Positions 2,897 through 59,867 are shown, counted from the stretch's first letter. The stretch is DNA of 64,000 nucleotides from a virus (IMGVR_UViG_3300042295_001370:5673-69672), one strand, 5' to 3'. Numbers and translations: made by a program. The notes: a model not told the origin generated them from the letters alone.

Positions 2897-3451
2897 TCAA
2901 AATAGTCCTCCGCCGCCAGCCCCAGGGCCACCTTCTGTAGGTGGAACTGAACCTGGAGGCACATAAATGCCCAACGTTCCCCCAGCCCCTCCACCGATCA
3001 GTGTTATTCTAGCACGCCTAACACCAGGTGGCGCTGTCCATGTTTGTGGACCAGCAGTGCTGAAAACTGCTGCATAATGTTGTTGATCAGTTATTTGTGG
3101 TCCTGTTGGCCCAGTATCACCATTGGGTCCTTGATCGCCTGGCGGGCCTTTGTTTGGACCTGGAGGTCCTTGAACTCCTGGGCTTCCAGGAATTCCCCCT
3201 CCCATACCAGGAGGACCAGGAGGCCCAGGTGGACCAACAACAAATGTGTCATCTCCTGGTGGTCCTTGAGGGCCAGGGCTCCCTGCTGTGCCAATAATAC
3301 CTGGAGGTCCAGGTGGTCCAATTTGTTGCCCAAAAAAGAATTGCTCTCCGTTGGCAGAGACTTTCAATACCAAGCCAGCTGGAACACCTTCCAGTTGCAC
3401 ATCAATAAGATCAGCTGATCCAACAACGCGGTTATCAAGTAGCTTTGGCAT
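2897..3451 (-). CDS. N-terminal half of collagen-like paralog 3
   Basis: [11 protein letters not shown] start, GPP-rich collagen tract, stops partway into the glycine-rich domain. Confidence 0.75.
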
Positions 3452-3460
3452 GCTTAGTCC

Positions 3461-3931
3461 TTAATTGGCAGTCGCATTGGCAATTTCCAATAGGCTTACA
3501 ACAACATCAACACAGTTATCAGTACTGGTATTGGTTGTTTCTGCTGGAGGATTACTTACTTGTACAACCAAGGTATCTCCGCTGCTCATGATCAAATTGC
3601 CATTCAAGGGGTCAAAAGCGTTGTTGGGAATAATTGTGTAATTGTTAACAAGGTAACGTCTACCAGTGGGCAGATAGGCTGGATCAGGAGGATTATCAAT
3701 CCATACACTGAGATTGATGGTTTTCCGTAGAGTAGGACTGCTGGGACTGCCTGTAATGTTGCTGCATTGAACAGTCAACAACACAATACTGACTTCAGTT
3801 GGATCTACACCTGGAGGCAATGTTGTGTTGGGAATAGTTTGATCGTAACTTGAAACTTTGTAAATGGTTGTGGGTTGATCATTTGTAACTCTAACTTTGA
3901 CATTACGAAAGTTAAAAATAGGTGCAGGCAT
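3461..3931 (-). CDS. Putative virion structural / tail-fibre-associated protein
   Basis: 156-aa beta-rich ORF tightly packed between the tail fibre and collagen genes. Confidence 0.55.
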   Translation of the reverse strand: MPAPIFNFRNVKVRVTNDQPTTIYKVSSYDQTIPNTTLPPGVDPTEVSIVLLTVQCSNITGSPSSPTLRKTINLSVWIDNPPDPAYLPTGRRYLVNNYTIIPNNAFDPLNGNLIMSSGDTLVVQVSNPPAETTNTSTDNCVDVVVSLLEIANATAN

Positions 3932-12715: not shown

Positions 12716-13205
12716 AATCAAAAAAATAGGTGTCAGGCTGTTGCATCAAATTATCAAGCTTGTATAGGTTAAACCCTTTGTAGTGCAGAATAAGATTACC
12801 TTGCGGGAGCAAGTCTGCCAAAAGGACTAAATCAGGAACATTGTTATATTTGATTATTAGCAATACCTTTTTTCCAGCACTTTGCGCGTCTTGCACAGCT
12901 TGATCAATCCATTCATCCCATGCAGTAATTTTTTGGTTCACTAACGCAGTAAATGTGGGAGGTGTTTTATTGTGTTTGCACTCTATGCTAAATTTGAAGT
13001 GTTTTGGACATATTATATCGCCAAACACTGCATAATCTAAATTATGCGTCTGAAGTTTAGCTATATTTGATCCTCCAAAGTAACTACCGCTATCGGGATT
13101 ACGTCTAAATCCTTTGTCCTCGTTCAATAATGATTTGAACTTTCCAGATAGGAGATTGGAAATCTTCCTCTCATAAGTGTTACCTTTATTTTTACTGTTC
13201 ATCAC
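12714..13205 (-). CDS. Holliday junction resolvase, PD-(D/E)xK (intact copy)
   Basis: SKNKGNTYERKIS..RRNPDSGSYFGG..GDIICP..SIECK. Confidence 0.8.
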   Translation of the reverse strand: MMNSKNKGNTYERKISNLLSGKFKSLLNEDKGFRRNPDSGSYFGGSNIAKLQTHNLDYAVFGDIICPKHFKFSIECKHNKTPPTFTALVNQKITAWDEWIDQAVQDAQSAGKKVLLIIKYNNVPDLVLLADLLPQGNLILHYKGFNLYKLDNLMQQPDTYFFD

Positions 13206-14028
13206 AAACTTCCGTAAACACCATCATATAATAATCCCATTTGTTCTTAATTTGCCAAACTAATGAGTAATCAACATCTAATTGTTTGGCTATTTGTTTA
13301 ACATCATATCCAGCAGTTAAGCTTTCCAATATGCTCTTATATATGTGAGGATTGGCGCGTATTTTAATTTTTTGTAATTCAATGCCCCTTCTGACATTTG
13401 AGAGTCTAGTAGCCTGTTTGTGTTGTTCAGTTTGATTTTTATTTCTCTCTGATATGCGAACGGACGCTTGAATTCTTCGTTGTTCAGAGAATGAATCTTT
13501 AAATTTTTGAATAGTTTCAGGGCTGCGTTTATATCCTTTTTCTCTCGGACATTTCTCTGACAAAATTTTACGTGTCTCTTCAGTGTGAGTCTTACCGTAA
13601 AACCCATTAAGTGGTCCTTTGCGACCTTTTGATGGATTCGGACCGCGCATCTTTTGTTTAGTTTCTTCAGATCTTGGTGACATTACTTGAAGCTTCCGCT
13701 TAGCCTTAATTTTGAGCCTAGTTGAGAGCGGCATAGGAATCTCAAATCTCTTACGCTTCAACCATCCGTATAATTTATTATTCCGTTGGTTTCCGACAGT
13801 CATCATAAATGCAGCATAAACGAGTTTTGCATTATCTGGATGCATCTTCATCAATAATAAATGAGCCACAAAGTGTTCTTCAGGTGTTAATACTGCTAAA
13901 TTTTCAGGGTTATCATCACCGCCTATACATCTAGGAACAATATGATGAATTTCTGTGTACACTGCGATAGGTCCAAACCTAGACTGTGCTGTTTCAATCA
14001 AGCTCTTATAAATCTTTGAATAATTCAT
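13192..14028 (-). CDS. HNH homing endonuclease with NUMOD3-type repeats
   Basis: EIHHIVPRCIGG.D...NL..LT.EEHF.AH; later FYGKTHTEETR motif. Confidence 0.9.
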   Translation of the reverse strand: MNYSKIYKSLIETAQSRFGPIAVYTEIHHIVPRCIGGDDNPENLAVLTPEEHFVAHLLLMKMHPDNAKLVYAAFMMTVGNQRNNKLYGWLKRKRFEIPMPLSTRLKIKAKRKLQVMSPRSEETKQKMRGPNPSKGRKGPLNGFYGKTHTEETRKILSEKCPREKGYKRSPETIQKFKDSFSEQRRIQASVRISERNKNQTEQHKQATRLSNVRRGIELQKIKIRANPHIYKSILESLTAGYDVKQIAKQLDVDYSLVWQIKNKWDYYMMVFTEVCDEQ

Positions 14029-14034
14029 TCTTAA

Positions 14035-14063
14035 CTCCTAAACATTATTTAGGTGTATTTATA
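14035..14063 (-). promoter_or_regulatory. Late promoter TATAAATA plus RBS-sequestering hairpin of the HNH gene
   Basis: Minus strand TATAAATA-CA-CCTAAA-TAATG-TTTAGG-AG-TTAAGA-ATG; the stem covers AGG of AGGAG. Confidence 0.7.
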
Positions 14064-14511: not shown

Positions 14512-15336
14512 CTATAGTAGTTGGTTAGGTTGAGTTTTGCAATTAGGACCATGCCATCTGATATAGTTCGCTAAACCAAAGATATTCCCGCAATGTTCAC
14601 AAGTTTGTTTTGTTGCTTCGAATATCTGTGCTCTCTTCTTCAAAATTTCTTCAGAGACTTTTTGGCCAGACCTTACTGCGGACATTCGGACTCCAAAGCC
14701 TGCAGGTTTTTTCTTGCCTCGATTTGCTAAACTTATCTTTTCTTTGGTCTCAGCAGACAGACTTCGTCCCCGAGATTTTTGTGAGCGTGCAGCTCGCATC
14801 TCTTCTGCTTTTGGGCCATAAATTTCTTCATAGGACCTGCCTTTTTTAGCTTCGCTCATTTTAGATCTAGCTTCATCAGAATGCTTTTTGCCATATAACG
14901 GATGATTCTCTCCTGACCTGTCGATAAGAGATAATGCATCTTTTATGTTCTTGATTGTTTCTGCACTTCTTTTTTTGCCACAATTGTTAACACTTGCTTT
15001 CATTCTTGATTCATCAGAGACTATCTTCCCAACTGCCCCATCCCCGCCATCAGTTCGATTGTGTAATATACCTGTGTTATTATCCAGGCGTCCCCACCAG
15101 AGTATCAGCCTTCTTTCGAGCGCAACAGCACCAAGATTAGTTAATCCTTGTTCAAGGACAACAATCCTCCATGCTTCTTTTGGTACAGGTAGAGTTCCGT
15201 GGTTTTCTTTGTAACGTATGCCGGTCCCTTTTCCAATATAATAAGGGGTTCCTGCAGGACCATTGTTGGATGTTGTTTTTCTTAAGTAGGCATACACATA
15301 AAACCCAAAGGGTTTGATATTACGATAAATAGACAT
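14512..15336 (-). CDS. GIY-YIG homing endonuclease (Seg-like) with NUMOD3 repeats
   Basis: FYVYAYLR..PYYIGKG, LHNRTDGGDG, HSDEARSKMSEAKKG; start MSIYRN after AAGGGAG. Confidence 0.9.
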   Translation of the reverse strand: MSIYRNIKPFGFYVYAYLRKTTSNNGPAGTPYYIGKGTGIRYKENHGTLPVPKEAWRIVVLEQGLTNLGAVALERRLILWWGRLDNNTGILHNRTDGGDGAVGKIVSDESRMKASVNNCGKKRSAETIKNIKDALSLIDRSGENHPLYGKKHSDEARSKMSEAKKGRSYEEIYGPKAEEMRAARSQKSRGRSLSAETKEKISLANRGKKKPAGFGVRMSAVRSGQKVSEEILKKRAQIFEATKQTCEHCGNIFGLANYIRWHGPNCKTQPNQLL

Positions 15337-15421
15337 AGCTGTTGCTCCCTTAAAGCGATAGAGCCGGTGGACCTGCCAGGGTCGTGACCGGCATATATCT
15401 ATATTTATGGAGTACAGATAA

Positions 15422-17203
15422 TTACTCACCGCTTTCATAGCTGAAACGAGTGAAACCTAACTCTTTGATAACATACAAAACTCGATCGCAGCGACTTGTT
15501 AGCTCTTCTCTATGTGAGATCAACAAAATGTTCTTGTTCCGATCTCTGCTCATAGCCTTAAGCGTCTCTAGAGATCTTTCAAGTCCTGTGCTGTCAAGTC
15601 CCACATCAAGGATCTCATCAACAGCCATGAAGTTGATGCTGGTGTTCATGTTTTCAAAAATGTCTCGGAATGCCCAGCTGAGTGCCAAACAAACTCTTGT
15701 GCGTTCACCTCGGCTGAGACTGTCAAAGTCAAAGTCTACGCCCATATGCATGATCTCAACTCCCAAGTCGTTGCTGAATTTAACTTGGTGTGGCAACATC
15801 AATCCAGCTAGATATTCACCCAGTCTGTGATTCAAGTAGCTGAGGTTTTGATCAATAATACGCTTTCGGATGAAGCTGTCTTTGTTTGTTAGCAGCTTCA
15901 AGAGAAACTCTTGATGGTCTTTGAGTTGGCTGAGTTCATTTAGTGAATCATAAGTGACTTCTTGCAGTGTGTCATTTAAATTACCCACTTGGGCTTGATA
16001 AGGATTGGTTTCAAGCTTAAGTTTGTCCAGTTCACCACTAAGAAGTGTGAGACTGTTTCGATGCTCATATGCCTCATCAATGCTTTTGTAAAATGTTTGG
16101 TTTAGCGATACAGCACTAGACAGACCCATGAGCTCATCCAGTTCTTGTGTCAAACTCAGGCATTCCTGTTCCAGTGTTTGAATGCTGCTGTCCAGTTTGG
16201 TAATTTTGTGCTCAAGGTCGTCCAGCAGATGTGTTTGTTTCTCGTCATGAATCTTTTGACCACACATTGCGCAGTTGTGGTCTTGAATTTGACTATACTG
16301 AGTTAACCAGTTGTTTTGTTGCGCCTTCAGCTGTGTTCCATGCTGTGTTTTTGTTTGGCTTTGGCTGCGCACATTCTTCAATGCTGTTTGAAGTTCACGA
16401 TACACAAGATTGTCTTTGTGACTTTGAATTTCCTGCTCAACATCAAGATGACTCAAAGCATCTAGTGCATTTTCCAAGTCTTGAATTTTGTTCTGATGTT
16501 GAGTATCCCACTGTTGGGTTTTTTGATTCAAACTTTCAATAGTGCTCAAAATACGTGTATTGCTGTTTTTGATAGTATGTATTTTGAACTCTTCTTGTTC
16601 AATAGTTTGTTTGGTTGTTTGAATAAGCTTTTTGAGGTTTTCTGCCTTCTGAGACAGTAATGTAATTCCCAACAGCTCTTCAATTATTTCTCGCTGTTTT
16701 CCAGCACCCATGCTCAAAAATGGCTCAGTATAGGTGTTCAAAGCCACAATGTGTTTGAACATGGTGTGGCTGATGCCCAATACCTTCTCAATCTCTTTCT
16801 GAGTATCTTTGTTTTCGCCTTGAGCTTCGTCTGCACTTTTGTTTTCATTTACTGATTCATCATTTACAACATAGCGGAAAAAACTAGGGGCACGGCCACG
16901 TTCAATTTTGTAGCTGTTGCCGTGGGCTTCAAACTCAATACTCACCACCATGTTCTTTTTGTTGATGCTGTTGATGAGATTGTTTTTCTTGATGTTAGTA
17001 AGAGCTTGACCATACAGGGCATAACAAATGGCTGAAATCAGCGTCGATTTGCCAACACCATTCCGGTTGCCGTTGCCGCCCAAGTCTAGATTCTCGCCCA
17101 ATACAAGAGTCAAGCCAGGTTGTGTGAGAGTAACTGATTGTGTAACAGCACCCACACTCATGAAGTTTTTGATTGTGACGTTTTTGAGGATGATCAAGTT
17201 CAA
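15422..17203 (-). CDS. gp46: Recombination endonuclease ATPase subunit (gp46/SbcC/Rad50)
   Basis: Walker A NGVGKST, coiled coil with CAMC zinc hook, LSRGE signature, Walker B AVDEILD. Confidence 0.95.
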   Translation of the reverse strand: MNLIILKNVTIKNFMSVGAVTQSVTLTQPGLTLVLGENLDLGGNGNRNGVGKSTLISAICYALYGQALTNIKKNNLINSINKKNMVVSIEFEAHGNSYKIERGRAPSFFRYVVNDESVNENKSADEAQGENKDTQKEIEKVLGISHTMFKHIVALNTYTEPFLSMGAGKQREIIEELLGITLLSQKAENLKKLIQTTKQTIEQEEFKIHTIKNSNTRILSTIESLNQKTQQWDTQHQNKIQDLENALDALSHLDVEQEIQSHKDNLVYRELQTALKNVRSQSQTKTQHGTQLKAQQNNWLTQYSQIQDHNCAMCGQKIHDEKQTHLLDDLEHKITKLDSSIQTLEQECLSLTQELDELMGLSSAVSLNQTFYKSIDEAYEHRNSLTLLSGELDKLKLETNPYQAQVGNLNDTLQEVTYDSLNELSQLKDHQEFLLKLLTNKDSFIRKRIIDQNLSYLNHRLGEYLAGLMLPHQVKFSNDLGVEIMHMGVDFDFDSLSRGERTRVCLALSWAFRDIFENMNTSINFMAVDEILDVGLDSTGLERSLETLKAMSRDRNKNILLISHREELTSRCDRVLYVIKELGFTRFSYESGE

Positions 17204-18231: not shown

Positions 18232-18358
18232 GACTCAAAAGTCTCCTTGAGTCAGAGTATAGCTGATAAAAACTGTTAGTTCAACAGGTGGGCAGGACCT
18301 AGATTTGTGATATTCATTATGATATATAAATAATATGCAATAGGGTTGGAGAAAAATT

Positions 18359-20080
18359 GTGAATTTGGCAGAATTGAAAGAACTTTGGTTGAACAAGGAG
18401 ATTACACCAAATAGGTTGACAAAGTTGTTGCCTATACACAAAGAAGAGCTAGACAAATTATTTCCTTGTGAAGGCCCAATTGCAGCTAAATTTTATGCAT
18501 ACGTTCATAACACTAATGCAGAAAACAGTTGGTGTGAACAGAGTGGTAAGTTCAGGACTTTCAATAATATGGTTCTAGGGTTCAGAAAATTCTGTGGTAA
18601 TCAATCTCAATGCTCCTGTAATCGTGAATATCAGGAAAGCGTTCGACACAGCCGCACTAGAGATGAAATAAATCATATTCACGAAAAACGTAAAAATACC
18701 AACCTTCAAAAGTATGGTTTTGAGTATGCAAGTCAACATGACAAGGTCAAAGCCAAAGCTGAGACCACATGTTTTGAAAAGTATGGCGCAAAAGCTCCAA
18801 CCTTAAATCCTGTTGTTTTAGACAAAGCACAAAAAACGATCCAGGAAAATTGGGGAGTAAACTTTCCTCAGCAACATCCTGATATAAGAACCAAAACTAT
18901 AGAGGTGTTTCAAAACACTTATGGAGCACCTGTTCCTGCTCAAAACCTGGAGGTGTTAGTTAAAACCAAAAAAACCAACCTCTCAAAATATGGTGTTGTG
19001 GCCCCGTTTTTGACAACAGAGCATAGGGAGACCAATAGGAAAACTTTTCGGCAAAAATCTTGGGATTCCTATATTACAAATAGGACTGATTACACTCCGT
19101 TATTCACTCAAGAAGAATTTTTGGACTCACATCGTTATTCTGAACATTCGTTTGTTTGCCAAAAATGCCATAACCAATTCAGTGTTGCCTTGAAAAGAGA
19201 ATCTGATTTGCGTTGTTTTGCTTGTTATCCAAGAAAAGAAAGTTGGGGAGAAACAAAGATCAAACAATGGTTGTGGGATAATAACATATCTTTTGAGCAA
19301 TGGAATAGGCAAGTTATCAAGCCATTGGAGATTGACTTTTATCTTCCAGATTTAAATGTGGGTATTGAGTTTAATGGCATCTTTTATCATTCAGATTGCC
19401 AAATAGGAGACAAAAAATATCATCAAAATAAATGGAAACAAGCTCTTGAAAAAGGTGTAAGGCTTGTTCAAATTTGGGAACATGAGATGGTGCAAAAACC
19501 CAATATTATATTTGACAGATTGTCACACGTAGTGGGTTTGAAAAAAACAATTGTTGGTGCACGTAAATGCAACATTACAGTTGTGGATTTTGGAACAGCT
19601 AAAACATTTATTCAGAACTCACACTTGCAGGGCAACATACCAACCAAACATATTTGGGGTTTGGAACACAACGGGTCGCTTGTTGCACTTGCTAGCTTTG
19701 TCAAAACTAGGTATAGCAAAGGGAGTGATTATGAGCTGGCCCGTTATTGTATTTTGCCTGGGTATCATGTGCCAGGAGGGCTTAGCAAGCTTTTGAATCA
19801 TGCACATCAGGAGTTGGGATTCAAAAGCTTGGTGTCCTACAGTAACTTGAACTGGGGACTGGGAAATGGTTACGAAAAAACAGGCTTTGAGTTAAGTCAT
19901 ATCAGTCCACCCAATTATTGGTATTGGAAAAATATAAATGACGTTCAGAGCCGACTTAAATTTCAAAAACACAAAATACAAGGCTTAGCTGCGGGCAATA
20001 CAGAGCAAGAAATTGCCAAAAATTTGGGCTACAATCGTTTTTATGATGCAGGCAACGCAGTGTGGATCAAAAAATACTAG
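18359..20080 (+). CDS. Hef-like homing endonuclease: KYG repeats, PD-(D/E)xK-type domain, C-terminal GNAT-like domain
   Basis: Repeated KYG..Q motifs, zinc motifs, EIDFYLPDLNVGIEFNG, then ARKC..ELARYC..GGLSKLL..VSYS; TATAAATA at 18325-18332. Confidence 0.75.
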   Translation: MNLAELKELWLNKEITPNRLTKLLPIHKEELDKLFPCEGPIAAKFYAYVHNTNAENSWCEQSGKFRTFNNMVLGFRKFCGNQSQCSCNREYQESVRHSRTRDEINHIHEKRKNTNLQKYGFEYASQHDKVKAKAETTCFEKYGAKAPTLNPVVLDKAQKTIQENWGVNFPQQHPDIRTKTIEVFQNTYGAPVPAQNLEVLVKTKKTNLSKYGVVAPFLTTEHRETNRKTFRQKSWDSYITNRTDYTPLFTQEEFLDSHRYSEHSFVCQKCHNQFSVALKRESDLRCFACYPRKESWGETKIKQWLWDNNISFEQWNRQVIKPLEIDFYLPDLNVGIEFNGIFYHSDCQIGDKKYHQNKWKQALEKGVRLVQIWEHEMVQKPNIIFDRLSHVVGLKKTIVGARKCNITVVDFGTAKTFIQNSHLQGNIPTKHIWGLEHNGSLVALASFVKTRYSKGSDYELARYCILPGYHVPGGLSKLLNHAHQELGFKSLVSYSNLNWGLGNGYEKTGFELSHISPPNYWYWKNINDVQSRLKFQKHKIQGLAAGNTEQEIAKNLGYNRFYDAGNAVWIKKY

Positions 20081-20922: not shown

Positions 20923-21042
20923 TATAGTCCTTTGTGTTTGAAACCCTAAATTTTGTAATTGGTTACAGAAGAAGTCAAAATGGACGCCTTGATCTGTTAA
21001 ATAATTCAATAGATTGCCAAAAGATTATGTTGGGGCGTAACA

Positions 21043-23262
21043 ATGAAGCTGTTTGACTTATTACCAGTAGTAAATCTCTCTTTGACTGAGGCCAAAGCCC
21101 GTATCGAGCATCCAGAAGACATGATCTTCGATGAGGGGTTAGATGGTGCCAAAAGAGCTTTTCATATACTGAGCACAACTGCTCATCAACCCGAGTATGT
21201 TAGTATAAAAATGGATGGAACACCAGCCTTGATTTCTGGATGGAAAGACTATAAATTTGTGTTAACAGACAAAGCTGGATTCAGCAGTAAAAAATACAAT
21301 GGTTTAACCACAAGCCCTGAGGATATTGTCAATATGCTCATGAGCAGGAAAATGAAAGACACCAGCCCCAGTGCAAAGAGTGCTCGACTGGCATATGCCA
21401 ACAAAATAGCCAGTCTCTACCCATTGTTGAAAAAAGTTACCCCAAAAGGATTTATCGGTTACGTTCAAGCGGATTTGTTGTGGACTGGTGTACCTCCCAT
21501 TGTAGATGGGGCATATGAATTTACACCCAACAAAATAACTTATCGTGTGCCTGTCAACAGTCAATATGGTGAAATGATTGCCAACAGCAGTGCTGGCGTG
21601 GTCATGCACAGTGTTTATCAAAGCCCTGAAGATCAGGAACCAGAAGCCTTGCGAAACATTAGTCAATATGGCTTTCGCACTGATCAAGGACTGGCTATCC
21701 TACCTCATGAAGCCACCATGCTCAAAAGTTTGAACCTGGATAAAAACTTAGTTGACAAATTATCCCACTTGTTTAGAGTGCATGCTGTAAGTGTGAAATC
21801 ATTTTTGGACAGAGGACAACTAGCCAGTCATGAAATCTTGAGCCTTCCTGGCTTGATGAAAAGCTTTTTGGCCAAAAAGGCAGAACGTGGTAGTTCCACA
21901 TTTAGCCATGTGAGTAGAGAGTTTTTGGAGTGGCTTACAGGGCTCAACAGTACTGCTAGCCCTGCAATGCAGGCCAAGTGTTTGAAATGGATTCAAAGCC
22001 ACATCCATGGTTACAATAGCGTGTGGCGGATAGTAAGTTTGTTAACAAGTTTGAAGCTGGATCTCAAGAAACAAATGGACCGTCAAACAGATGGGACAGT
22101 GGGTGCTAGTTTGGGTGGAGATCCAGGACATGAGGGATTTGTGGCTGTAACTCCCACTGGAATAGTGAAGTTTGTAAATCGTGCCCAATTTATGAGAAAA
22201 GGCGAGCCTGATTCATTGATGGAACAAGAACACAACCGGGTAGTTTGGACCTTTGGGAGGATGAATCCTCCCACTCGTGGTCATCAGCACTTGGTTAACA
22301 CAATGGCCAAACACGCTGGCAAGGGTGACTATTGGATCTTTTTGAGTCACAGTCAAGACGGAAAAAAGAATCCATTGCCTTGGGCGGAAAAGCTGGAGTT
22401 TTTCCAAGAGATTATGTCTCAACACCAAGATCATGTGGTGCAGGATGAGAGCATCAAAACTCCGCTGCAAGCCGCAGAATGGCTCTACAACAAAGGCTAT
22501 AGACATTTTGTATTTGTTGCCGGCGAAGATCGTGTGCAGGGCATGAAAGACCTTTTTGACTCTTGGAACAGTCCAGAAATACGTGAAAAACATCAACGTC
22601 AACCAGTGACGATTGAAATTGTATCAGCTGGAGAACGGCATCCAGATGGCATTGGCGTTAGTGGAATAAGCGGCACCAAGGCACGTGAGGCTGTTTTGAA
22701 CAAAGACAAAAAGGCTTTCCACCAAGCTGTGGGTTTGGATGATGAACTTTCCAATAGGCTGTTCCAATCAGTTCGACGCTATCTCAAGCACCCTAGGAAC
22801 ACAGTAATGGAAGCTCATGAGCACGCTGCTGGCACCATAGTTGTTTTGAGCATGAGTCCCAAAAATGCTCGAGAGCTCAAAGAATGGTGTGAAAGTCAAG
22901 GTGTTCCCTGTATGAATACTGATGATCTTCACATGACTGTTTTGTATAGCCAAAAACCAGTGCCTCACCTCATGAGCATGCATGGTAACACTGTGGTTGT
23001 GCCAGCACAAATAAAAGGTTGGACCAAAATGGGCGACAAAGCCCTGTGCCTAGACCTAGATTGTGACCTGGCACACAAATTTCATCATCATTTGAAGAGC
23101 AAGGGCGGAACTCACGATTTCCCCAACTTCATTCCACACAGCAGCGTAAATTACAATTGGTTGGAGAGAACAGACCTACCAAAAGTTTTGCCCAACTTTC
23201 CTCTGCTGTTTGATCAGATTCATGTCAAGCCAATTGATCCCCGATACGGAAACAAAAGCTAA
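21043..23262 (+). CDS. Three-domain protein: ligase-like nucleotidyltransferase + HxGH cytidylyltransferase-like + 2H phosphoesterase (Acb1/gp57B-like)
   Basis: KMDG..EGFV; FGRMNPPTRGH; LHMTVLYS..GTHDF..FIPHSSV. Confidence 0.75.
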   Translation: MKLFDLLPVVNLSLTEAKARIEHPEDMIFDEGLDGAKRAFHILSTTAHQPEYVSIKMDGTPALISGWKDYKFVLTDKAGFSSKKYNGLTTSPEDIVNMLMSRKMKDTSPSAKSARLAYANKIASLYPLLKKVTPKGFIGYVQADLLWTGVPPIVDGAYEFTPNKITYRVPVNSQYGEMIANSSAGVVMHSVYQSPEDQEPEALRNISQYGFRTDQGLAILPHEATMLKSLNLDKNLVDKLSHLFRVHAVSVKSFLDRGQLASHEILSLPGLMKSFLAKKAERGSSTFSHVSREFLEWLTGLNSTASPAMQAKCLKWIQSHIHGYNSVWRIVSLLTSLKLDLKKQMDRQTDGTVGASLGGDPGHEGFVAVTPTGIVKFVNRAQFMRKGEPDSLMEQEHNRVVWTFGRMNPPTRGHQHLVNTMAKHAGKGDYWIFLSHSQDGKKNPLPWAEKLEFFQEIMSQHQDHVVQDESIKTPLQAAEWLYNKGYRHFVFVAGEDRVQGMKDLFDSWNSPEIREKHQRQPVTIEIVSAGERHPDGIGVSGISGTKAREAVLNKDKKAFHQAVGLDDELSNRLFQSVRRYLKHPRNTVMEAHEHAAGTIVVLSMSPKNARELKEWCESQGVPCMNTDDLHMTVLYSQKPVPHLMSMHGNTVVVPAQIKGWTKMGDKALCLDLDCDLAHKFHHHLKSKGGTHDFPNFIPHSSVNYNWLERTDLPKVLPNFPLLFDQIHVKPIDPRYGNKS

Positions 23263-24092
23263 ACAGCTACACCTGTCAACTGCTCAATCCTTGCAGCTTC
23301 TTCTTCTGATTTGCGTTGCTCACTGGGAGATTTCTGCTTAAACTTCCCAGTTTTCACATCCATTGTGGGTTTGCCAGTGGGCCCTAATTTATCCAAGCTC
23401 CTTAGAGTTTGAATCAACTCAGTCAACCCTTGATGAATAGCCCTATTGCCTTTGATGGCTCGTTGAATAGTTTCAACACTTTGGAAGCTGTCGTGAGTGA
23501 ATCTGGGCCCCAATAGCTTTTGTGCAATCACATCAGGATCAGTGGAGATAACAGATTCATCTTCCCGATTCAACAGTCCACGTTGCCAACTGTATTTCAT
23601 TCCCAATGCTTTGGCAATACTGCTCATGAGTTGATTTCTTTCTGCACCAGTGTAGTTGCTGGCGTCTCCTGGACTCTGCATGCTGAATTTCATCCATTGA
23701 GGATCATCATGGAAGAAAAAGTCAGTTTGCACGAAGCCATTCTTGGGATCACCTGCAATTGGTGTCAACAGATGAACTTCTCCAGCAGGCTTCACATACT
23801 CTTTGGGGTTCAAACCTTGGCTCAACACCCAGTTTTGGAGACTTTGGGCAAATTGGGCTTTTGACATTTTCTTGCTGTCGACTACAATGTCGATATCCCC
23901 ACTGCTGGCTTTTTTGCCAACACTGCCCAAGGTCATGCCATGCATAGGCAGCCCTGTGATTTTTTCCAGCCAATCCAACGTGGGACTGATCAAAGCCAGT
24001 GGGATACGAGTGGTGCGTGGATAGCCATCTGAGGTTTTGAATACGTTGCCGCCTTCAAAAACTAATTGTGGGGAGAGTTCAAACTGTTTCAT
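23259..24092 (-). CDS. Pol-beta-superfamily nucleotidyltransferase
   Basis: LGSVGKKASSGDIDIVVD (hGS-x-DhD) and VQTDF third acidic strand. Confidence 0.65.
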   Translation of the reverse strand: MKQFELSPQLVFEGGNVFKTSDGYPRTTRIPLALISPTLDWLEKITGLPMHGMTLGSVGKKASSGDIDIVVDSKKMSKAQFAQSLQNWVLSQGLNPKEYVKPAGEVHLLTPIAGDPKNGFVQTDFFFHDDPQWMKFSMQSPGDASNYTGAERNQLMSSIAKALGMKYSWQRGLLNREDESVISTDPDVIAQKLLGPRFTHDSFQSVETIQRAIKGNRAIHQGLTELIQTLRSLDKLGPTGKPTMDVKTGKFKQKSPSEQRKSEEEAARIEQLTGVAV

Positions 24093-24099
24093 GATCTAG

Positions 24100-24134
24100 T
24101 ATTTAGATTCCAGCTGGTTTCCAGCACATAAATA
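24100..24134. promoter_or_regulatory. Divergent late promoters
   Basis: TCTAAATA on minus (24100-24107) and CATAAATA on plus (24127-24134). Confidence 0.6.
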
Positions 24135-27747: not shown

Positions 27748-30525
27748 ATGGCAACATTAAAACAAACAGTAAATTTACCTGGAGCTTATGAGCTAGAGCC
27801 TGGGGGGCTACGTGCCACCTGGGACAAAATTTATCTTGGCCTAATACGAGACGTAAATGATGCTCGCAACATGGGACGTATCCGAGTTTGGATCCCTGAA
27901 CTTGGTGGAGCAATCAATAATGAAGCAACGTGGATCATTTGTGATTACGCCAGTCCATTTGCTGGGGCATCAAACGTAGCTGATGTAAACCTAAATCCCA
28001 CAAGCTCACAAACAGACTATGGTATGACATTCATACCACCTGACCTCAATAACCAAGTGCTGGTTTGTTTCATAAATGGCGATCCTAGCCGAGGGGTTTG
28101 GTTTGGATGTTTGTTCCAAGTTGACCGCAATCATATGACTCCCAGCACTCCTGCCAGCACTCCTGCCAGCAATCCACAAGAGCAGAACCCAAATATATTC
28201 ACTGGTGAATCACCAACGTTTTTATCAGGTTACGATGCAGCTCGAGAATCTGGAGGAGTTAACCTCCCTATTGAACAAGGTGGACCAGCACCGAGAGGTA
28301 TGCAACAGGGTATTCGCACTATGGGTATCCGAACCCCATATGGGCACACCTTCGTTATGGACGACACCCCAGAAGACGCTTTCATCCGCCTGCAAACTCG
28401 TGGCCTAGCTCAAATTGTTATTCATGATACAAAAGATAGAATCATAATCAACACTGGTCCAAACAGAGCCAGGATAGAGATGGACAAAGAAGGCAACATT
28501 GACATTTTTGGACAAAAGAGTGTAAGTGTCAGTGCCGGACAAGACATCAATTTACATGCTGACAGAGATGTGAATATTGAAGCTGGTGGCAGCATCAAAA
28601 TGAGAAGCCTAGATGAAACACGCATGTTCAGCAAAAAGCCCTTCAACATCAGCAGTGGTGGAGATGTTTTGTTGTTCAGTCAAGGAAATATGCATCTTGT
28701 CAGTAATTCAAATATCTACAACACTGCTGTAGGCAGCCTACAATACAGAAGCAATTATGGCATATTTCTCACCACTCAAGAAAGCAACATTGACATCAAA
28801 AACTTGACTGGTAATATTCGCTTGTTTGCAGGAGGCAATGTTGATGCCAGCAGCACAGGTGACGTAAGGTTAAGAAGCACAAATGGTAACTTAAATTTAG
28901 TTGCCAGTGCTGATGTAAAAGTTCAAAGCACAGGTACCTTGAATTTAGTAGGTGGTGCTGATGTCAAAGTTCAAGGCAATGGATCTGTAAACTTGCGTTC
29001 TGGTGCAGGAAGTGTGAACACTGGTCCAAAAACAGTCTTGAATGTTGCTAATTTACCAGATGCAGCCAAGCCCACCAATCCAGATAATCCCATAACTGCT
29101 GTACCAGGAGTAGTTGCATTATCGCCTGACATTCGAACGGAAGAAAGAGTGCAGTTGCAGAATGTAGTGAGTCCTGCAAGAAGCATTCAGATTGTTCAAA
29201 CCATTGTCAGCAGACTGCCAGGAGCTGATCCTTGGAGACAAAGAAGTGTTTCAGGCCCAGGTTATTCCAACACAGGCCTAGTGCAGAGGAAAATCACTCC
29301 ACCTGAAAGCACTTACAAAGTGGGGCAAGTGAGTCCAGCACAAGACAAACCACTCCAAGTATATGGAATAGTGAATGGTCAAACTGGCTTGCACATTGGG
29401 CAAAGTTGGGACGAAGGTGGGACTCCACAATATGAATTCAAACCGTTGGGTCCCAGAGTATTGCTCCCCTCCACAGAGTGGACAGTTAACAACCGTGGTA
29501 TTCAAATCATAATTGATCATGAAGGTTTGGGTGGCAATTTGATTGGCAAGCCCTTTGACGATGCATGCAAAAGCGGGCAAAAGCTGTTGGGTTATGGTCA
29601 TTTGTTATCAAGTGAAGAACTTCAAAACAACACAGTTACCTTGAATGCAACAGACGATTCTGGCACTCAGATCAGCACGCAATTGAATGTTGGAGAGGGT
29701 ATAAGCGAAACCAATATGAAGGTGTTGTTGAAAACAGACATCAAAAAAATTGAAGGCAAGATTCACAGCAGCATTGGTAGCAACCTATTAACACAAGATC
29801 AGTTCAATAGTTTAGCAGACTTCATCTACAACATTGGCTCTGACAACTTTGACAAGAGCGGCATCACTGGCATGATCAGCAGCGGAGACTACAACAAAGT
29901 TCCAAATGAAATGAGTCGATGGATTTTGGCTTGTAACAACGAAGAAAAGTTTGAACTCAAAACTCGCCGTCTCAACAACGCATTTTTGTTCAGTGGCCAA
30001 GCTAGACCTGATGCAGACTTCAGTGCAGCAGCAAGTGGGGCTGGCAAAGGATTTGATTCCAATCAAGCCAAAAAAGCTTGGTGTTACTTGAAGGGCAAAG
30101 GTTATCAACCCGAACACATTGCTGGCTTGCTGGGCAATTTCACTATTGAAAGTGCCTTGAATCCCCGAGTGGACAGCAACCCCACCTTCAAAGGCTTGGC
30201 TCAATGGAATTCCGATCGTTTCAAAAATATGCCACGGGCTATTGGTGTAAGTTGGCCACAATTGAGTCAACTATCAAACGACACTGCCTTGTATAAAAGC
30301 CTAGACTTTGTGGATTGGGAATTCAAGAACACACATCGCAGTGCCTACTCCAAGATGTTGGCAACCAACAGTCCTGAGTCAGCAGCTAGAGCAGTAAATG
30401 AATACTACGAGATCAGTTCATCAGGGCTGTTGGGACGGCAGGGAACAATTACCCCAGAAGCTCAAAACAGATTCAATACAGCAAAGACCATTTTTGATCA
30501 ACTGAATGGAACTCAGTGCGGCTAA
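27748..30525 (+). CDS. gp5: gp5/VgrG-like tail spike with two lysozyme-type domains
   Basis: OB-fold (D..NMGRIRVWIPEL), beta-helix repeats, GH24-like HEG..GYGH, C-terminal tail-lysozyme AG.LGNF..ES.LNP..GLAQWN. Confidence 0.8.
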   Translation: MATLKQTVNLPGAYELEPGGLRATWDKIYLGLIRDVNDARNMGRIRVWIPELGGAINNEATWIICDYASPFAGASNVADVNLNPTSSQTDYGMTFIPPDLNNQVLVCFINGDPSRGVWFGCLFQVDRNHMTPSTPASTPASNPQEQNPNIFTGESPTFLSGYDAARESGGVNLPIEQGGPAPRGMQQGIRTMGIRTPYGHTFVMDDTPEDAFIRLQTRGLAQIVIHDTKDRIIINTGPNRARIEMDKEGNIDIFGQKSVSVSAGQDINLHADRDVNIEAGGSIKMRSLDETRMFSKKPFNISSGGDVLLFSQGNMHLVSNSNIYNTAVGSLQYRSNYGIFLTTQESNIDIKNLTGNIRLFAGGNVDASSTGDVRLRSTNGNLNLVASADVKVQSTGTLNLVGGADVKVQGNGSVNLRSGAGSVNTGPKTVLNVANLPDAAKPTNPDNPITAVPGVVALSPDIRTEERVQLQNVVSPARSIQIVQTIVSRLPGADPWRQRSVSGPGYSNTGLVQRKITPPESTYKVGQVSPAQDKPLQVYGIVNGQTGLHIGQSWDEGGTPQYEFKPLGPRVLLPSTEWTVNNRGIQIIIDHEGLGGNLIGKPFDDACKSGQKLLGYGHLLSSEELQNNTVTLNATDDSGTQISTQLNVGEGISETNMKVLLKTDIKKIEGKIHSSIGSNLLTQDQFNSLADFIYNIGSDNFDKSGITGMISSGDYNKVPNEMSRWILACNNEEKFELKTRRLNNAFLFSGQARPDADFSAAASGAGKGFDSNQAKKAWCYLKGKGYQPEHIAGLLGNFTIESALNPRVDSNPTFKGLAQWNSDRFKNMPRAIGVSWPQLSQLSNDTALYKSLDFVDWEFKNTHRSAYSKMLATNSPESAARAVNEYYEISSSGLLGRQGTITPEAQNRFNTAKTIFDQLNGTQCG

Positions 30526-31745
30526 GTTTGTTGCACTGAGATTCCAGGAGGAATAAGGCCAGCCACTGCACTTCCCAGTCCCAAAATGGGACTTAACACC
30601 AGCCCAATAAATGTGCAGAAGGTGAAGGGAATGTACTTGAAGATTTCTTTGAGTATGGGAACAAACTTCAAGATAGCTTTGAAGAACCCCACGACAAGCT
30701 TCATCCACAGTTCCAATATCAGAGTAGGAATTTGTTCAAACAAGTCTTTCACAGCCTGCATTATGCTGTTGAAGCGGGTTTCCTTGCTCTCAAGATTGAG
30801 ATCTTTGGGTGGGTCAGATATTTTGAGAAGCTGTTTGACTTTTGTGGGAAAAGGCCAAGCTATGAATTTCAACAAGGGACTAAATGCCTTGTCCAAAAAG
30901 TTTTTTATATCAAACTCAAGAAAGTAATCAATCATGCGCTGCATTTTTTCATTAGCACTGATGGCCAAGTCTTTGATGGGTTGCCACACACTATTGAAAA
31001 GCTCTTCAAAATTTAGGGCCACCAAATTGGGAAGGTCTGGTAAGCGCAGGGCTTGCCAAATTTTTTTGATCGGTTCAGTCAAAGCTCTTAGTGCTCGGAA
31101 ACCTCTGTTGATTAGGCTCAATAAACCTTTGTGGAACTCACTCCATACTCTACTGATTAGGCTTTGTTGGCGCATTTCATCGTTCTTCAAACCCAATGTT
31201 CCATCAAATGTGATATTCCAAGGTAGGCCCAAGGCTTTTGCTATTTGATCTTGGCGAGCGCCAATTGCAGCTCTTATTTTAGCTCTACCCTCTGCACTAA
31301 GAAGATCACGCACTGTACAGTTGGGCAGGAACGGCAACGGTATATTCAAAAAGCTCAAGTTGGGAATAATCCTGCCCAAAATGTCCAATAACTTGAGTTC
31401 CAAATAGAGTTTGAACTCATTAAACAGTGCTCGCAGTCGTACACCCATTTCTTGTTCTGGGACTTTGAGGTTAGGGCCGTACACAGGATTGTCCACGCTG
31501 CCTAGTGTGGTCCCAAAGGTTTTGTCAAATAATTTCAGTAAACTGTCTATTGCATCCGAAATTTGTTTGGCTGTGGCAGTAACAGTGCATTGAGCTATCT
31601 GACCCAATTGCCCTGGTATGCTGCCTAGCCCTCGGCCAAACTCATCAAGATTGTTGAAATTGGGTAATACACCATCAGTGCATTCAAACTTTGGAAATGT
31701 AACTGTGAGGCTCACGCCCTGGCAAGGATCTATTGGTTGATTCAT
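30522..31745 (-). CDS. Hypothetical late protein, probably virion-associated
   Basis: 407-aa ORF with TAAATA 6 nt upstream of the ATG. Confidence 0.6.
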   Translation of the reverse strand: MNQPIDPCQGVSLTVTFPKFECTDGVLPNFNNLDEFGRGLGSIPGQLGQIAQCTVTATAKQISDAIDSLLKLFDKTFGTTLGSVDNPVYGPNLKVPEQEMGVRLRALFNEFKLYLELKLLDILGRIIPNLSFLNIPLPFLPNCTVRDLLSAEGRAKIRAAIGARQDQIAKALGLPWNITFDGTLGLKNDEMRQQSLISRVWSEFHKGLLSLINRGFRALRALTEPIKKIWQALRLPDLPNLVALNFEELFNSVWQPIKDLAISANEKMQRMIDYFLEFDIKNFLDKAFSPLLKFIAWPFPTKVKQLLKISDPPKDLNLESKETRFNSIMQAVKDLFEQIPTLILELWMKLVVGFFKAILKFVPILKEIFKYIPFTFCTFIGLVLSPILGLGSAVAGLIPPGISVQQT

Positions 31746-39352: not shown

Positions 39353-39754
39353 TCAAACAGTTTGCCCCATGGGAACATATGCCAAGATGCTTACACTAGC
39401 CTCCTTGGCAGCTTGCGCTCGGTGGTTGCCGTCAACAACACTGCCATTTGGTCCCATAATCACAGGGTCCACTTGCTCTCCACGCTCTAGTTTGATGGTT
39501 AGCTTTTTCACAATCTCATCGTCAATATCAATTACCCGATTAAAAGGATCATCTGGCAGCACATCACCATAGTGATCTGGAAAGTCTTGCGGGTTGATCA
39601 TTTTTATGCCCCAGTCTTGACTTTTGATCCAGTTGACCATAGCAGGATTAGTGGGCTCTTCGTGATGCATGCTTTTGTAGAGAGTCAGCATTTCGCTACC
39701 AGTTATGCTTTCAGTTAACTGAATTTTTGGCGACAAAAAATCACTTGCTCTCAC
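39353..39754 (-). CDS. ParB/Srx-like domain protein with N-terminal leader
   Basis: PVIM...VVDGNHR; GTAAATA late promoter at 39779-39785. Confidence 0.6.
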   Translation of the reverse strand: MRASDFLSPKIQLTESITGSEMLTLYKSMHHEEPTNPAMVNWIKSQDWGIKMINPQDFPDHYGDVLPDDPFNRVIDIDDEIVKKLTIKLERGEQVDPVIMGPNGSVVDGNHRAQAAKEASVSILAYVPMGQTV

Positions 39755-58963: not shown

Positions 58964-59039
58964 AGCAGCCTCCTTGTTTACAGTAAGGAATGTAGCACAA
59001 GGAGGCTGGCCTGTCAACCATTTTTTGCGTAAATATCCC

Positions 59040-59867
59040 ATGCGTATAACAGATCTCAATCCCCGGATCCTACGGGAAAGCTTCTCCAACATCAGCGTTG
59101 AGCAGTTGGGCATCAAAAATCTAGTGGACCAAGCTGATGACAGTTTGACCGGAGAGGCTGCTGATGCCCTAGAGGGATTTGTAGGAGTGCCACCGGATGC
59201 CCAAAACAAGGGCATGTGGGGCGGAATCATGAAAAGTGCTCAACTGGAAGATGCCTACAGCCCACAGCCAAGTGAGCGGGGCCAACGGATCCGAGCCAGC
59301 CTGGAGCAGAGTTTTAGGCCAGTGCAAGCGGCCTTGCGGAGGAAGTTTGGCGACACCATACGTCTCTATCGAGCTCAAACCCCTGTGGGTGACAAAGGTG
59401 GTCCCCGGCACACACTCAGCTGGACAAGTGACCCCCGCGTTGCAGCTTGGTTTGCAGGAGTAGATCCCAGGCTCATGAAGGTCAAGCCCATAACTGATCA
59501 GGCTATTCAACAAGCAGTGCAAGAGTATAACCAAAAGGGCAAAGTCACTTGGAGAGGGAAACAATATGTGCGCACTGATGAGCCCACCAATGACCCTGAC
59601 CTAGACCCTTATTATTATCACATCTTTGACAGCGATGGTGACATGATAACTGATGGGGACGATTTAGAGGAGCAGTTCCGAGAAGACCAAACTTGGATCA
59701 CTGAGCTGTTGCAAAAGAGAGACCGCAAGCTTGAGAAAGTCCTGCAAGCTGACATACCTGTTAACAGCATCATCTGGATAACCGATCGTGCAGGACAAAG
59801 CGAGTTCATCCTGCACAACCAGCCCGGGCGCCCGGGATTTGTCACCAGCCTGGGCCAGCTGGGCTAG
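59040..59867 (+). CDS. Putative ADP-ribosyltransferase-fold protein with N-terminal leader
   Basis: IRLYR, LSWTSD..VA.WF and QSEFIL match R-S-E strands; TAAATA 4 nt before ATG; only plus-strand gene in the early region. Confidence 0.55.
   Translation: MRITDLNPRILRESFSNISVEQLGIKNLVDQADDSLTGEAADALEGFVGVPPDAQNKGMWGGIMKSAQLEDAYSPQPSERGQRIRASLEQSFRPVQAALRRKFGDTIRLYRAQTPVGDKGGPRHTLSWTSDPRVAAWFAGVDPRLMKVKPITDQAIQQAVQEYNQKGKVTWRGKQYVRTDEPTNDPDLDPYYYHIFDSDGDMITDGDDLEEQFREDQTWITELLQKRDRKLEKVLQADIPVNSIIWITDRAGQSEFILHNQPGRPGFVTSLGQLG

Follow-up and report, generated by a model that had tools for sequence, protein, structure and literature searches.

A predicted T4-type head-cargo polyprotein joining a ligase-type DUF6267 domain, a HIGH-superfamily nucleotidyltransferase and an Acb1 domain in a very large phage

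In a 64,000-nucleotide stretch of viral DNA (IMGVR_UViG_3300042295_001370:5673-69672, hereafter the window), an open reading frame (ORF) at 21043..23262 (+) encodes a protein of 739 amino acids plus stop, in which a DUF6267 domain with a ligase-type fold, a HIGH-superfamily nucleotidyltransferase domain and an Acb1-family 2H phosphodiesterase domain follow one another. The reading that we prefer, with a probability of about 0.5, is based on sequence features and on analogy with T4: this chain may be a late head-cargo polyprotein carrying a T4-type tag, from which the prohead protease would release three enzymes for injection, the Acb1 part acting against the signals of the cyclic oligonucleotide-based antiphage signaling system (CBASS). 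The window belongs to an IMG/VR virus record of 133.7 kb whose CheckV completeness is ~30%, indicating that the phage genome is very large. Its left half contains T4-type late and replication genes (portal, baseplate hub and wedge, gp5-like spike-lysozyme, gp46/gp47-like SbcCD and gp55-like late sigma factor), and its right half contains small genes with sigma-70-type promoters. The ORF is flanked by the gp55-like late sigma factor gene and baseplate genes, an order that is kept in relatives down to 46% identity.

Three Pfam domains were detected in the 739-aa protein above curated cut-offs: DUF6267 at residues 21-384 (E = 2e-27), CTP_transf_like at residues 403-549 (E = 7e-6) and Acb1 (PF23474) at residues 597-733 (E = 1e-18). 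PHROG assignments agree with those of Pfam, and an NCBIfam search gave sub-threshold matches only. A previous sequence-only reading of this DNA had proposed a ligase, an HxGH nucleotidyltransferase and an Acb1-like 2H domain in one polypeptide. Pfam matches and predicted folds bear out these three domain identities at the level of ligase-type, nucleotidyltransferase and Acb1-like 2H, and all strings quoted for them were located in the ORF (SIK56MDG, Q142ADLL, H363EGFV, VK376FV, T411RGH414, LH630MT632VLYS and GGTHDF693PNFIPH699SS701VNYN).

The C-terminal domain (residues 597-739; 22831..23259, +) scores 67.6 bits with the Pfam Acb1 model against a cut-off of 27. Its best matches in the Protein Data Bank (PDB), both by sequence and by fold, are the Acb1 structures of phage FBB1 (phmmer to 7t26, E = 1e-8; Foldseek to 7t26/7t27, E = 8e-10), with template modeling (TM) scores of 0.68-0.72, normalized to the target, and a predicted local distance difference test (pLDDT) value of the model above 90. 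The 2H fold claimed for this domain is thus recovered by structure prediction. BLASTP to T4 Acb1 (57B, taken from the T4 record) revealed 27% identity (E = 3e-14), and the two strings of T4 Acb1 quoted for comparison in the earlier reading, HSTICYS and GATHDFDDYTPHITLSYN, both proved correct when checked in that record.

The catalytic tetrad of T4 Acb1 (H44/T46 and H113/T115) corresponds to H630/T632 and H699/S701, of which the histidines are invariant and the T/S positions are kept in at least 90% of 35 relatives. Roles in nucleobase stacking and in the adenine-N6 contact have been described for Y12, W74, F107, W147 and E141 of T4 Acb1 (PMC9117128). Three of the four stacking aromatics are retained here (W74 as W660, F107 as F693 and the lid residue W147 as Y735); Y12 is replaced by I599, and the adenine-N6 contact E141 by K729, at a position where many relatives have E. 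On profile, alignment and model, the C-terminal domain is a true member of the Acb1 family. Considering that the catalytic tetrad and most stacking residues are present, it is reasonable to regard it as a counter-defence enzyme, and to this extent the earlier suggestion of a fused counter-defence enzyme stands. What does not hold up well is the idea of a single fused enzyme, because the N-terminal tag, the protease-type sites in the linkers, the late promoter-like motif and a virion-detected homolog, all of which are described below, point to a polyprotein.

The middle domain (residues 400-578; 22240..22776, +) carries the motifs FGRMNPPT411RGH414 and GIS543GTKAR548 and was assigned to the HIGH superfamily of nucleotidyltransferases on the basis of Pfam CTP_transf_like (PF01467, 26.7 bits vs. 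a cut-off of 21), PHROG cytidyltransferase (E = 2e-44) and Foldseek. T and H are invariant in T411-R-G-H414, as are S and R in I542-S543-G-T-K-A-R548. The superfamily named in the previous reading is correct, but the motif is TxGH, as in phosphopantetheine adenylyltransferase (PPAT), rather than HxGH, which does occur in the cyanophage homologs. Foldseek matches to FMN adenylyltransferase (FMNAT), nicotinic acid mononucleotide adenylyltransferase (NaMNAT) and PPAT are about equal (E = 2e-5 to 7e-4, probability 1.00). A link to NAD metabolism had also been suggested. This finds no specific support, since TIGR00482 scores 15 bits vs. a cut-off of 112.45 and PPAT and FMNAT are matched just as well in fold; classification as a nicotinamide mononucleotide adenylyltransferase (NMNAT) was rejected because of a score so far below the equivalog cut-off. 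A model of residues 386-739 (pLDDT 91.5, predicted TM score (pTM) 0.61) suggests two well-folded domains without a fixed mutual orientation.

The N-terminal domain (residues 17-384, with a helical insert at ~234-349; 21091..22194, +) belongs to DUF6267, a family for which no mention was found in the literature searched. The AlphaFold model of residues 1-392, built with 54 homologs, has a pLDDT of 92 save for residues 1-20 and 381-392. When the model was compared exhaustively with the structures of 48,161 chains, the 20 best matches were all adenylyltransferase domains of RNA or DNA ligases (Z 5.0-6.2 over 160-200 residues), including the ligase domain of the tRNA ligase Trl1 (Trl1-LIG), Naegleria RNA ligase (NgrRnl), TbREL1, T4 Rnl2, Rnl1, LigIII/IV and the T7 and Chlorella virus ligases. 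This resemblance was seen because an exhaustive aligner was used: Foldseek of the domain against PDB gave nothing at E <= 0.001, its top rows being unrelated helical proteins, and the DUF6267 family profile found nothing among PDB sequences at E <= 10.

Multiple alignment of 54 DUF6267 proteins revealed a set of invariant residues: H23, E25 and D26 (HPED); K56, D58 and G59 (KxDG); H189; K338; E364 and G365; K376; and R380. The sequence K56-M-D58-G59, whose K, D and G are invariant in all 54, would be motif I, and is replaced by K...HN in 5 of 35 fusion relatives. Further candidates were assigned by eye: D144 (strand 138-148), F160/Y167, E364-G365-F-V (strand 365-370) and K376 (strand 373-377). 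Along the predicted strands, motif I and these candidates follow the order of ligase motifs I, III, IIIa, IV and V, and the helical insert accounts for ~115 residues; candidate motif V reads K-x-V...R380, differing from K-x-K. The assignment as a ligase, proposed in the sequence-only reading, is based on fold, with modest scores, and on motif order; a sequence-level match to any solved ligase was not found. We take DUF6267 to be a divergent covalent nucleotidyltransferase and, most probably, a polynucleotide ligase.

The five fusion relatives with K...HN (P0026, P0053, P0056, P0061 and P0062) have the sequence MKVTSVQPLNE|KFEE...YVKAGD...HN in place of the leader, the HPED helix and KxDG, and retain all of the downstream ligase-type invariants. 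The ligase domain of these proteins may be inactivated, or motif I may have been rebuilt.

The chain starts with an N-terminal tag, MKLFDLLPVVNLSLTE (residues 1-16; 21043..21090, +), a predicted capsid-targeting propeptide with a site at L14-T15-E16|A17. Its assignment is based on likeness to T4 leaders and on low pLDDT (58-68 for residues 1-20 of the AlphaFold model). Linker 1 (residues 385-399; 22195..22239, +) has low pLDDT in both models and contains a predicted cleavage site, L392-M393-E394|Q395. Linker 2 (residues 579-596; 22777..22830, +) contains a second predicted site, V588-M589-E590|A591, where E590 is nearly invariant; it is disordered, with a pLDDT below 50 at residues 586-591 (N586-A591, around V588-M589-E590) between two domains above 90. 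The N-terminus of the 35 full-length relatives reads M-K-L-x-x-L-(F/L)...hydrophobic-x-E, followed by AKARIEHPED. Alignment of the same relatives showed that both linkers vary in length and sequence, except for one hydrophobic-x-E. This motif occurs in 35/35 relatives in each of linker 1, linker 2 and the N-terminal tail, vs. 6.1, 11.2 and 20.1 expected from composition-preserving shuffles of each segment, a difference whose significance is overstated by the kinship of the relatives and to which we attach no formal probability. Site density is 4-9 per 100 aa in the tag and linkers vs. 0.7-1.3 within the domains. Cleavage of the 83-kDa chain at the three sites would give products of 378, 196 and 149 residues (17-394, 395-590 and 591-739), with masses of about 42, 22 and 17 kDa.

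Similar leaders were found in proteins in which one of these domains comes first. The leader pattern matches 55/84 DUF6267-first and 18/20 nucleotidyltransferase-first proteins, compared with a background of 3/191 ORFs of the phage's own record (one of which is the 739-aa ORF itself) and 3/724 unrelated ORFs in the fetched loci. Standalone nucleotidyltransferases, which start at the point equivalent to linker 1, have leaders such as MKLRQLFE, MFITELFE, MLLNELFE and MRLRELFE, which are separated from the fold by 7-28 spacer residues. The starts MKLAHLFES and MLLSTLFES are seen in DUF6267 proteins, both standalone and fused, so that the same type of leader heads proteins of unrelated folds.

In T4, the first 10 residues of internal protein III (IPIII) suffice for capsid targeting, gp21 cuts after Glu, and propeptides are 7 to 65 residues long (PMC9026906, PMC3012670), that of gp23 having 65 (PMC9026906). 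The T4 internal proteins form a diverse anti-defence set whose sole common part is the targeting sequence (PMC9026906, PMC3012670). Several leaders in the T4 record resemble the tag: MKTYQEFIAE|A of IPII and IPIII, MKTFKEFTSTTTPVSTITE|A of IPI and MELITELFDE of Alt. In addition, the gp23 maturation site FLTE65|A shares L-T-E|A with S-L-T-E16|A17. The tag itself has 16 residues and two possible sites and is identical to no T4 capsid-targeting sequence. A protease of the gp21 family (Peptidase_S77, PF03420; E = 1.3e-23) is encoded in the same record (G000:C1:3203-3628, in a minus-strand gene at about 3068-3790), and the phage also encodes a gp22-like scaffold and a gp23 capsid protein. In T4 (NC_000866, 73591-74410), acb1 (57B) directly adjoins ipI, and the start of T4 Acb1, MMEFKDF, is like the IPI leader MKTFKEF, but without a hydrophobic-x-E before the fold.

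Published virion proteomes contain relatives of the middle domain. The 'cytidylyltransferase' S-SZBM1_140 of a T4-like cyanophage was found in purified virions by liquid chromatography-mass spectrometry and was listed as an auxiliary metabolic gene product (PMC9146016). In our comparison it shares 33% identity with the middle domain (E = 7e-27); its N-terminus is MRFRQFIIE|A, and its upstream neighbour is a DUF6267 homolog (E = 2e-17). The virion proteome of S-CREM2 also includes a cytidylyltransferase (ORF154), whose encapsidation was suggested by the authors and whose likeness to the middle domain is by annotation only (PMC10665884). Just downstream of the S-SZBM1 cytidylyltransferase, S-SZBM1_139 (a 457-aa hypothetical protein, L005 4816-6189) was detected in virions as well (PMC9146016) and may be another cargo protein of the same cluster.

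With regard to the timing of expression, a late promoter-like core, TTAAATA, is present at 20997..21003 (+), 39 nt upstream of the ATG, and a Shine-Dalgarno-like GGGG run at 21032-21035. The core [AT]TAAATA has 10 sites in the window, and at 8 of these a gene on the same strand starts 6-39 nt further on; these are the genes for the portal, a 774-aa protein, the baseplate hub, a virion protein, two homing endonucleases, a 407-aa protein of unknown function (30522-31745) and the three-domain chain. In 10 of 10 distinct relatives TAAATA is found 16-53 nt before the start of the fusion gene despite diverged flanks. Only two copies of the exact T4 late promoter TATAAATA are present in the window, no more than chance would give, and it is the shorter core that is informative; a sigma-70 scan near the three-domain gene gave no more than shuffled sequences did. 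Judging from these motifs, late expression of the fusion gene is likely. TAAATA was also found on the plus strand at 59031-59036 and on the minus strand at 24101-24106, only 3-8 nt before the ATG of the genes starting at 59040 (+) and 24092 (-). If these sites are late promoters, the mRNAs of both genes would be leaderless or nearly so.

The three-domain chain is represented by more than 60 clusters (90% identity) from metagenomes, with 42-83% identity and some members on contigs of 250-476 kb. None of 50,697 isolated phage records spans at least 80% of the protein, and to date the three-domain fusion has therefore been seen in metagenomic contigs only. A 7-kb segment surrounding the gene had no megablast match in the same records. 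In hundreds of T4-like cyanophages, and also in Melnitz-type phages, DUF6267 and the nucleotidyltransferase are separate proteins with adjoining genes. Other combinations include nucleotidyltransferase with Acb1, DUF6267 with ParB_N, nucleotidyltransferase and Acb1 (P0034), and a nucleotidyltransferase of the Pol-beta superfamily with DUF6267. Hydrophobic-x-E was present at every junction examined in P0034 and in the fusions of Pol-beta with DUF6267, the junctions of P0034 being ELDE|T, EITE|M and ALKE|H. Besides, a metagenomic protein of 1080 aa (P0117) consists of a Phage_portal_3 portal followed by an Acb1 domain (E = 5e-41) and an ADP-ribosyltransferase exoenzyme toxin domain, indicating that Acb1 is physically joined to a virion component in another phage lineage.

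The gene convergent with that of the three-domain chain (23259..24092, -; the two stop codons overlap) encodes a 277-aa Pol-beta-superfamily nucleotidyltransferase with the leader MKQFELSPQLVFE|GGNVFK. Alignment of this family revealed the signature LGSxGKKxSSGD[IL]D[IL]xVD (G56-S57...D66-x-D68) and an invariant D124. The gene adjoins the fusion gene in all relatives, down to 46% identity. Moreover, Pol-beta is fused N-terminally to DUF6267 at loci L074, L076 and L086 and in proteins of ~613 aa, with the junction P-I-F-E-[AG]-[AV]|RIEHPED, which provides a Rosetta-stone link placing both enzymes in the same module. Searches with the neighbour gave no Pfam family at E <= 10 beyond chance matches and nothing among PDB sequences or Atlas structures; of the named Atlas clusters, NTP_transf_2 and DNA_pol_B_palm come nearest. 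The family of the neighbour is virus-only and without a Pfam model. PADLOC found no match for either the neighbour or the 739-aa protein.

RlaP is a Pol-beta nucleotidyltransferase associated with RNA ligases, which extends damaged 3' ends of RNA by one or two nucleotides (PMC7824862; bioRxiv 10.64898/2025.12.29.696909). Neither the neighbour (P0260) nor 10 members of its family matched the RlaP model PF10127 at E <= 1. A true RlaP (PF10127, E = 1.5e-17) and two PF09414 RNA ligases, which together make up a canonical RNA-repair set, are encoded beyond the window in the same record (G000:C1:122557-123444 (-), 111205-111780 (-) and 103655-104086 (-)). This implies that the tagged module is a second, separate set.

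Putting these features together, the tag M-K-L-x-x-L-L...L-T-E would bring the chain into the prohead scaffolding core, like the targeting sequences of T4 internal proteins, and a gp21-type prohead protease would cut after Glu at E16|A17, E394|Q395 and E590|A591. Three enzymes of about 378, 196 and 149 residues would stay in the capsid and then enter the next host with the DNA. The C-terminal product would cleave the cyclic di- and trinucleotide signals of CBASS. The N-terminal product would be a ligase-type enzyme forming lysyl-NMP at K56 and the middle product an adenylyltransferase-type enzyme; together with the separately tagged Pol-beta enzyme, they would provide a toolkit for modifying nucleotides or nucleic-acid ends. 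Packaging, cleavage, injection and all enzymatic activities of the 739-aa protein are thus what we infer from its domains, sites and relatives.

A number of observations weigh against this proposal, in addition to the kinship of the relatives noted above. Hydrophobic-x-E is a short motif. The distances from the site to RIEHPED and to the first strand of the nucleotidyltransferase are fixed, so the Glu preceding each domain may have a structural role; many members of the Pol-beta partner family start with M-x-hydrophobic-x-E|GGNVFK, so that there the Glu belongs to the domain. The virion evidence concerns cyanophage homologs of the middle domain, none of them a three-domain protein. Peptide counts were low (2-3), S-CREM2 enters through its annotation, and the DUF6267 homolog of S-SZBM1 is untagged and absent from its virion list (PMC9146016). 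The ligase fold rests at Z 5.0-6.2 with no sequence-level link to a solved ligase, and two T4 Acb1 contacts, E141 and Y12, are K729 and I599 here. Finally, in T4 infection it is gp21 itself that sets off CBASS, at a late stage (PMC12991175), which means that a late cytoplasmic Acb1 would be useful even without packaging. A purely structural Glu was also considered as an explanation of the sites. It holds for the Pol-beta family and fails to explain the variable spacers after the nucleotidyltransferase tags and the disorder of the linkers.

An alternative that we regard as unlikely keeps the same packaging and replaces the anti-CBASS role by a virion-delivered kit of four enzymes for nucleic-acid end repair. 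Pol-beta would restore lost 3' nucleotides (as RlaP does), the 2H domain would open 2',3'-cyclic phosphates and DUF6267 would seal. The targets would be RNA broken by tRNA- or mRNA-cutting defences, or ends and nicks of the injected DNA; the DNA variant would resemble the polymerase, phosphoesterase and ligase set of LigD, assembled from non-homologous parts. The fusion or adjacency of Pol-beta and DUF6267 in many phages, like that of RlaP with RNA ligases (PMC7824862), is consistent with this scheme, and RlaP has been shown to add 3'-NMP to damaged RNA (bioRxiv 10.64898/2025.12.29.696909). The top fold matches are RNA ligases (Trl1-LIG, NgrRnl, REL1, Rnl2 and Rnl1), 2H enzymes classically heal 2',3'-cyclic ends (PMC5512222), and the changes of Y12 to I599 and of E141 to K729 would also fit. 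However, the 2H domain scores as Acb1 and as neither LigT nor cyclic phosphodiesterase (CPD) (E = 1e-18, with the tetrad and the equivalents of W74, F107 and W147 retained), a kinase making the 5'-phosphate is absent, and the scheme leaves the HIGH nucleotidyltransferase without a role. The neighbour was not detected as an RlaP, and a true RlaP and two RNA ligases are already present in the record.

It is somewhat less probable still that the protein acts late in the cytoplasm as an uncleaved, unpackaged trifunctional enzyme, either in Trl1-like healing and sealing or in combined counter-defence, with the linker Glu residues and the N-terminus being structural or regulatory. The fusion is kept in more than 60 clusters, and stable fusions usually reflect coupled activities; the fixed spacing of Glu to each fold agrees with this view. 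It also speaks for this view that T4 Acb1 is not known as a head protein. Late firing of CBASS on gp21 activation (PMC12991175), already mentioned, would give such an enzyme a use. On the other hand, the tag is common to unrelated folds and more than 40-fold above background, the linkers are disordered and variable save for hydrophobic-x-E, and a nucleotidyltransferase homolog is present in virions (PMC9146016). Free shuffling of the domains between chains argues against a fixed pathway, and the pTM of 0.61 for the nucleotidyltransferase and Acb1 domains suggests no fixed packing. The analogy with Trl1 drawn in the sequence-only reading fails at the middle domain: the P-loop polynucleotide kinase, a defining feature of Trl1 that its architecture requires, is replaced by a HIGH-superfamily nucleotidyltransferase, and no kinase family matched the protein. 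Filing it as a Trl1-type tRNA ligase was rejected for this reason.

Highly improbable is an auxiliary metabolic enzyme for nucleotide-cofactor or NAD+ salvage (NMN/NaMN adenylyltransferase), aiding replication or restoring NAD+ depleted by defences, to which the homologs named 'nicotinic acid mononucleotide adenylyltransferase' in several sources, the weak TIGR00482 match, NaMNAT among the Foldseek matches and the classification of the gene as auxiliary metabolic in cyanophage papers (PMC9146016) would point, as the TIGR00482 score is far too low (15 bits vs. 112), the fold ties equally with PPAT and FMNAT, and the ligase-like domain, Acb1, tag, late promoter and virion detection are left unexplained.

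Two further genes of the window might encode tagged cargo. The first (39353..39754, -; 133 aa) has the leader (M)RASDFLSPKIQLTE|S, a ParB-like DGxHR motif and TAAATA ~25 nt upstream, and its protein aligns to the ParB_N segment within the P0034 chain (E = 1e-4). The second (59040..59867, +; 275 aa) has the leader MRITDLNPRILRE|S and TAAATA 3 nt before the ATG. A Pfam search of both proteins gave no match. Genes near standalone DUF6267 genes (loci L038, L062, L067, L071, L074, L076 and L082) often have leaders of the type M-[KR]-x-x-[DE]-[LFI], for example MKVNDLKRPKLEE|G, MKAHEFRDELFE|S and MRAKDLEE|A, and these sequence patterns suggest clusters of tagged cargo genes in many marine phages.

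Homing-endonuclease-type genes were observed among the core genes at 13192-14028 (-), 14512-15438 (-) and 18359-20080 (+), the last of which is of the HNH type and lies between gp47 and gp55. Two of the homing-endonuclease genes have a late promoter-like ATAAATA just upstream (14056-14062 and 18326-18332). No tRNA genes were found in the window.

In more general terms, and with a confidence a little short of even, we propose that T4-like giant phages load their capsids in advance with a protease-cut chain of nucleotide enzymes, and that many marine T4-like phages do so by means of separate genes. Acb1 would be injected ahead of expression, DUF6267 would be a hitherto unrecognised, virion-delivered polynucleotide ligase family working with Pol-beta and TxGH enzymes, and the cyanophage 'cytidylyltransferase' would be head cargo. 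If this is true, anti-CBASS nucleases are deliverable as pre-made virion cargo, which changes the view of timing in the arms race between CBASS and phages, and head maturation proteases process effector polyproteins, which joins T4 capsid targeting to the predicted 'polyvalent proteins'. The large DUF6267 family would acquire a fold, a catalytic lysine and a biological context, with a new Pol-beta enzyme as its partner. In hundreds of marine cyanophages the 'cytidylyltransferase' would have to be reinterpreted as an injected enzyme, in agreement with two virion proteomes. It might also be possible to exploit the leader and the linker sites as a natural means of loading T4-like capsids with several proteins.

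Among known systems, T4 IPI, IPII, IPIII and Alt share with the 739-aa chain a short leader of the form M-K-x-x-x-(E/L)-F leading to hydrophobic-x-E|A, a gene that is late or, here, probably so, and a gp21-type protease in the genome. They are counter-defence or host-modifying cargo delivered with the DNA (PMC9026906, PMC3012670), as the chain would be, but each is one functional unit, whereas the chain consists of three enzymes with a protease-type site at each joint. Polyvalent proteins (PMC5512222) likewise have disparate enzymatic domains in one polypeptide, a late or virion gene context and predicted injection; their repertoire includes 2H, ParB-like nucleases and ADP-ribosyltransferases, and their portal-2H fusions match P0117. 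Their 2H domains were never seen with RNA ligases (PMC5512222), in contrast to the Acb1 2H domain fused here to a ligase-type domain, and they rely on built-in peptidase domains and on MuF or portal fusion, where we propose a head maturation protease and a T4-type leader.

The C-terminal domain resembles T4 Acb1 (gp57B) and Erwinia phage FBB1 Acb1 (7t26/7t27) in Pfam family, 2H fold, HxT/HxS pairs and C-terminal lid motif (PMC9117128), and the 152 residues of T4 Acb1 are close to the 149 of the predicted released fragment. T4 Acb1, however, is a free 152-aa protein, and its counterpart here is the C-terminal module of a 739-aa chain with a late promoter-like motif, a head-cargo context, I599 and K729. 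Fungal and plant Trl1 (LIG-KIN-CPD, with KIN the kinase) is similar in its ligase-type N-terminus (Trl1-LIG fold match, Z 6.2), nucleotide-binding middle and C-terminal 2H domain; it differs in that the middle of our protein is a HIGH nucleotidyltransferase, its 2H domain is of the Acb1 rather than the CPD type, and its linkers resemble cleavage sites. As in RlaP (PF10127) operons, a Pol-beta nucleotidyltransferase is tied to a ligase-type enzyme by adjacency and fusion (PMC7824862), although the neighbour has no PF10127 match and the phage has a separate true RlaP with canonical RNA ligases. S-SZBM1_140 is a middle-domain homolog that adjoins a DUF6267 gene, carries the leader MRFRQFIIE|A and is found in virions (PMC9146016); unlike the middle domain, cyanophage 'cytidylyltransferases' are encoded by a separate gene, have HxGH for TxGH, lack Acb1 and are annotated as auxiliary metabolic genes (PMC9146016, PMC10665884).

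T4 capsid-targeted cargo, polyvalent proteins and Acb1 are already known kinds, and no report of a packaged Acb1 was found in the literature searched. What is new is the combination, in one chain, of a T4-type leader, internal sites of the maturation-protease type, Acb1 and a ligase-type DUF6267 domain, together with a new Pol-beta enzyme that is linked to it and a different interpretation of the 'cytidylyltransferase' of cyanophages.

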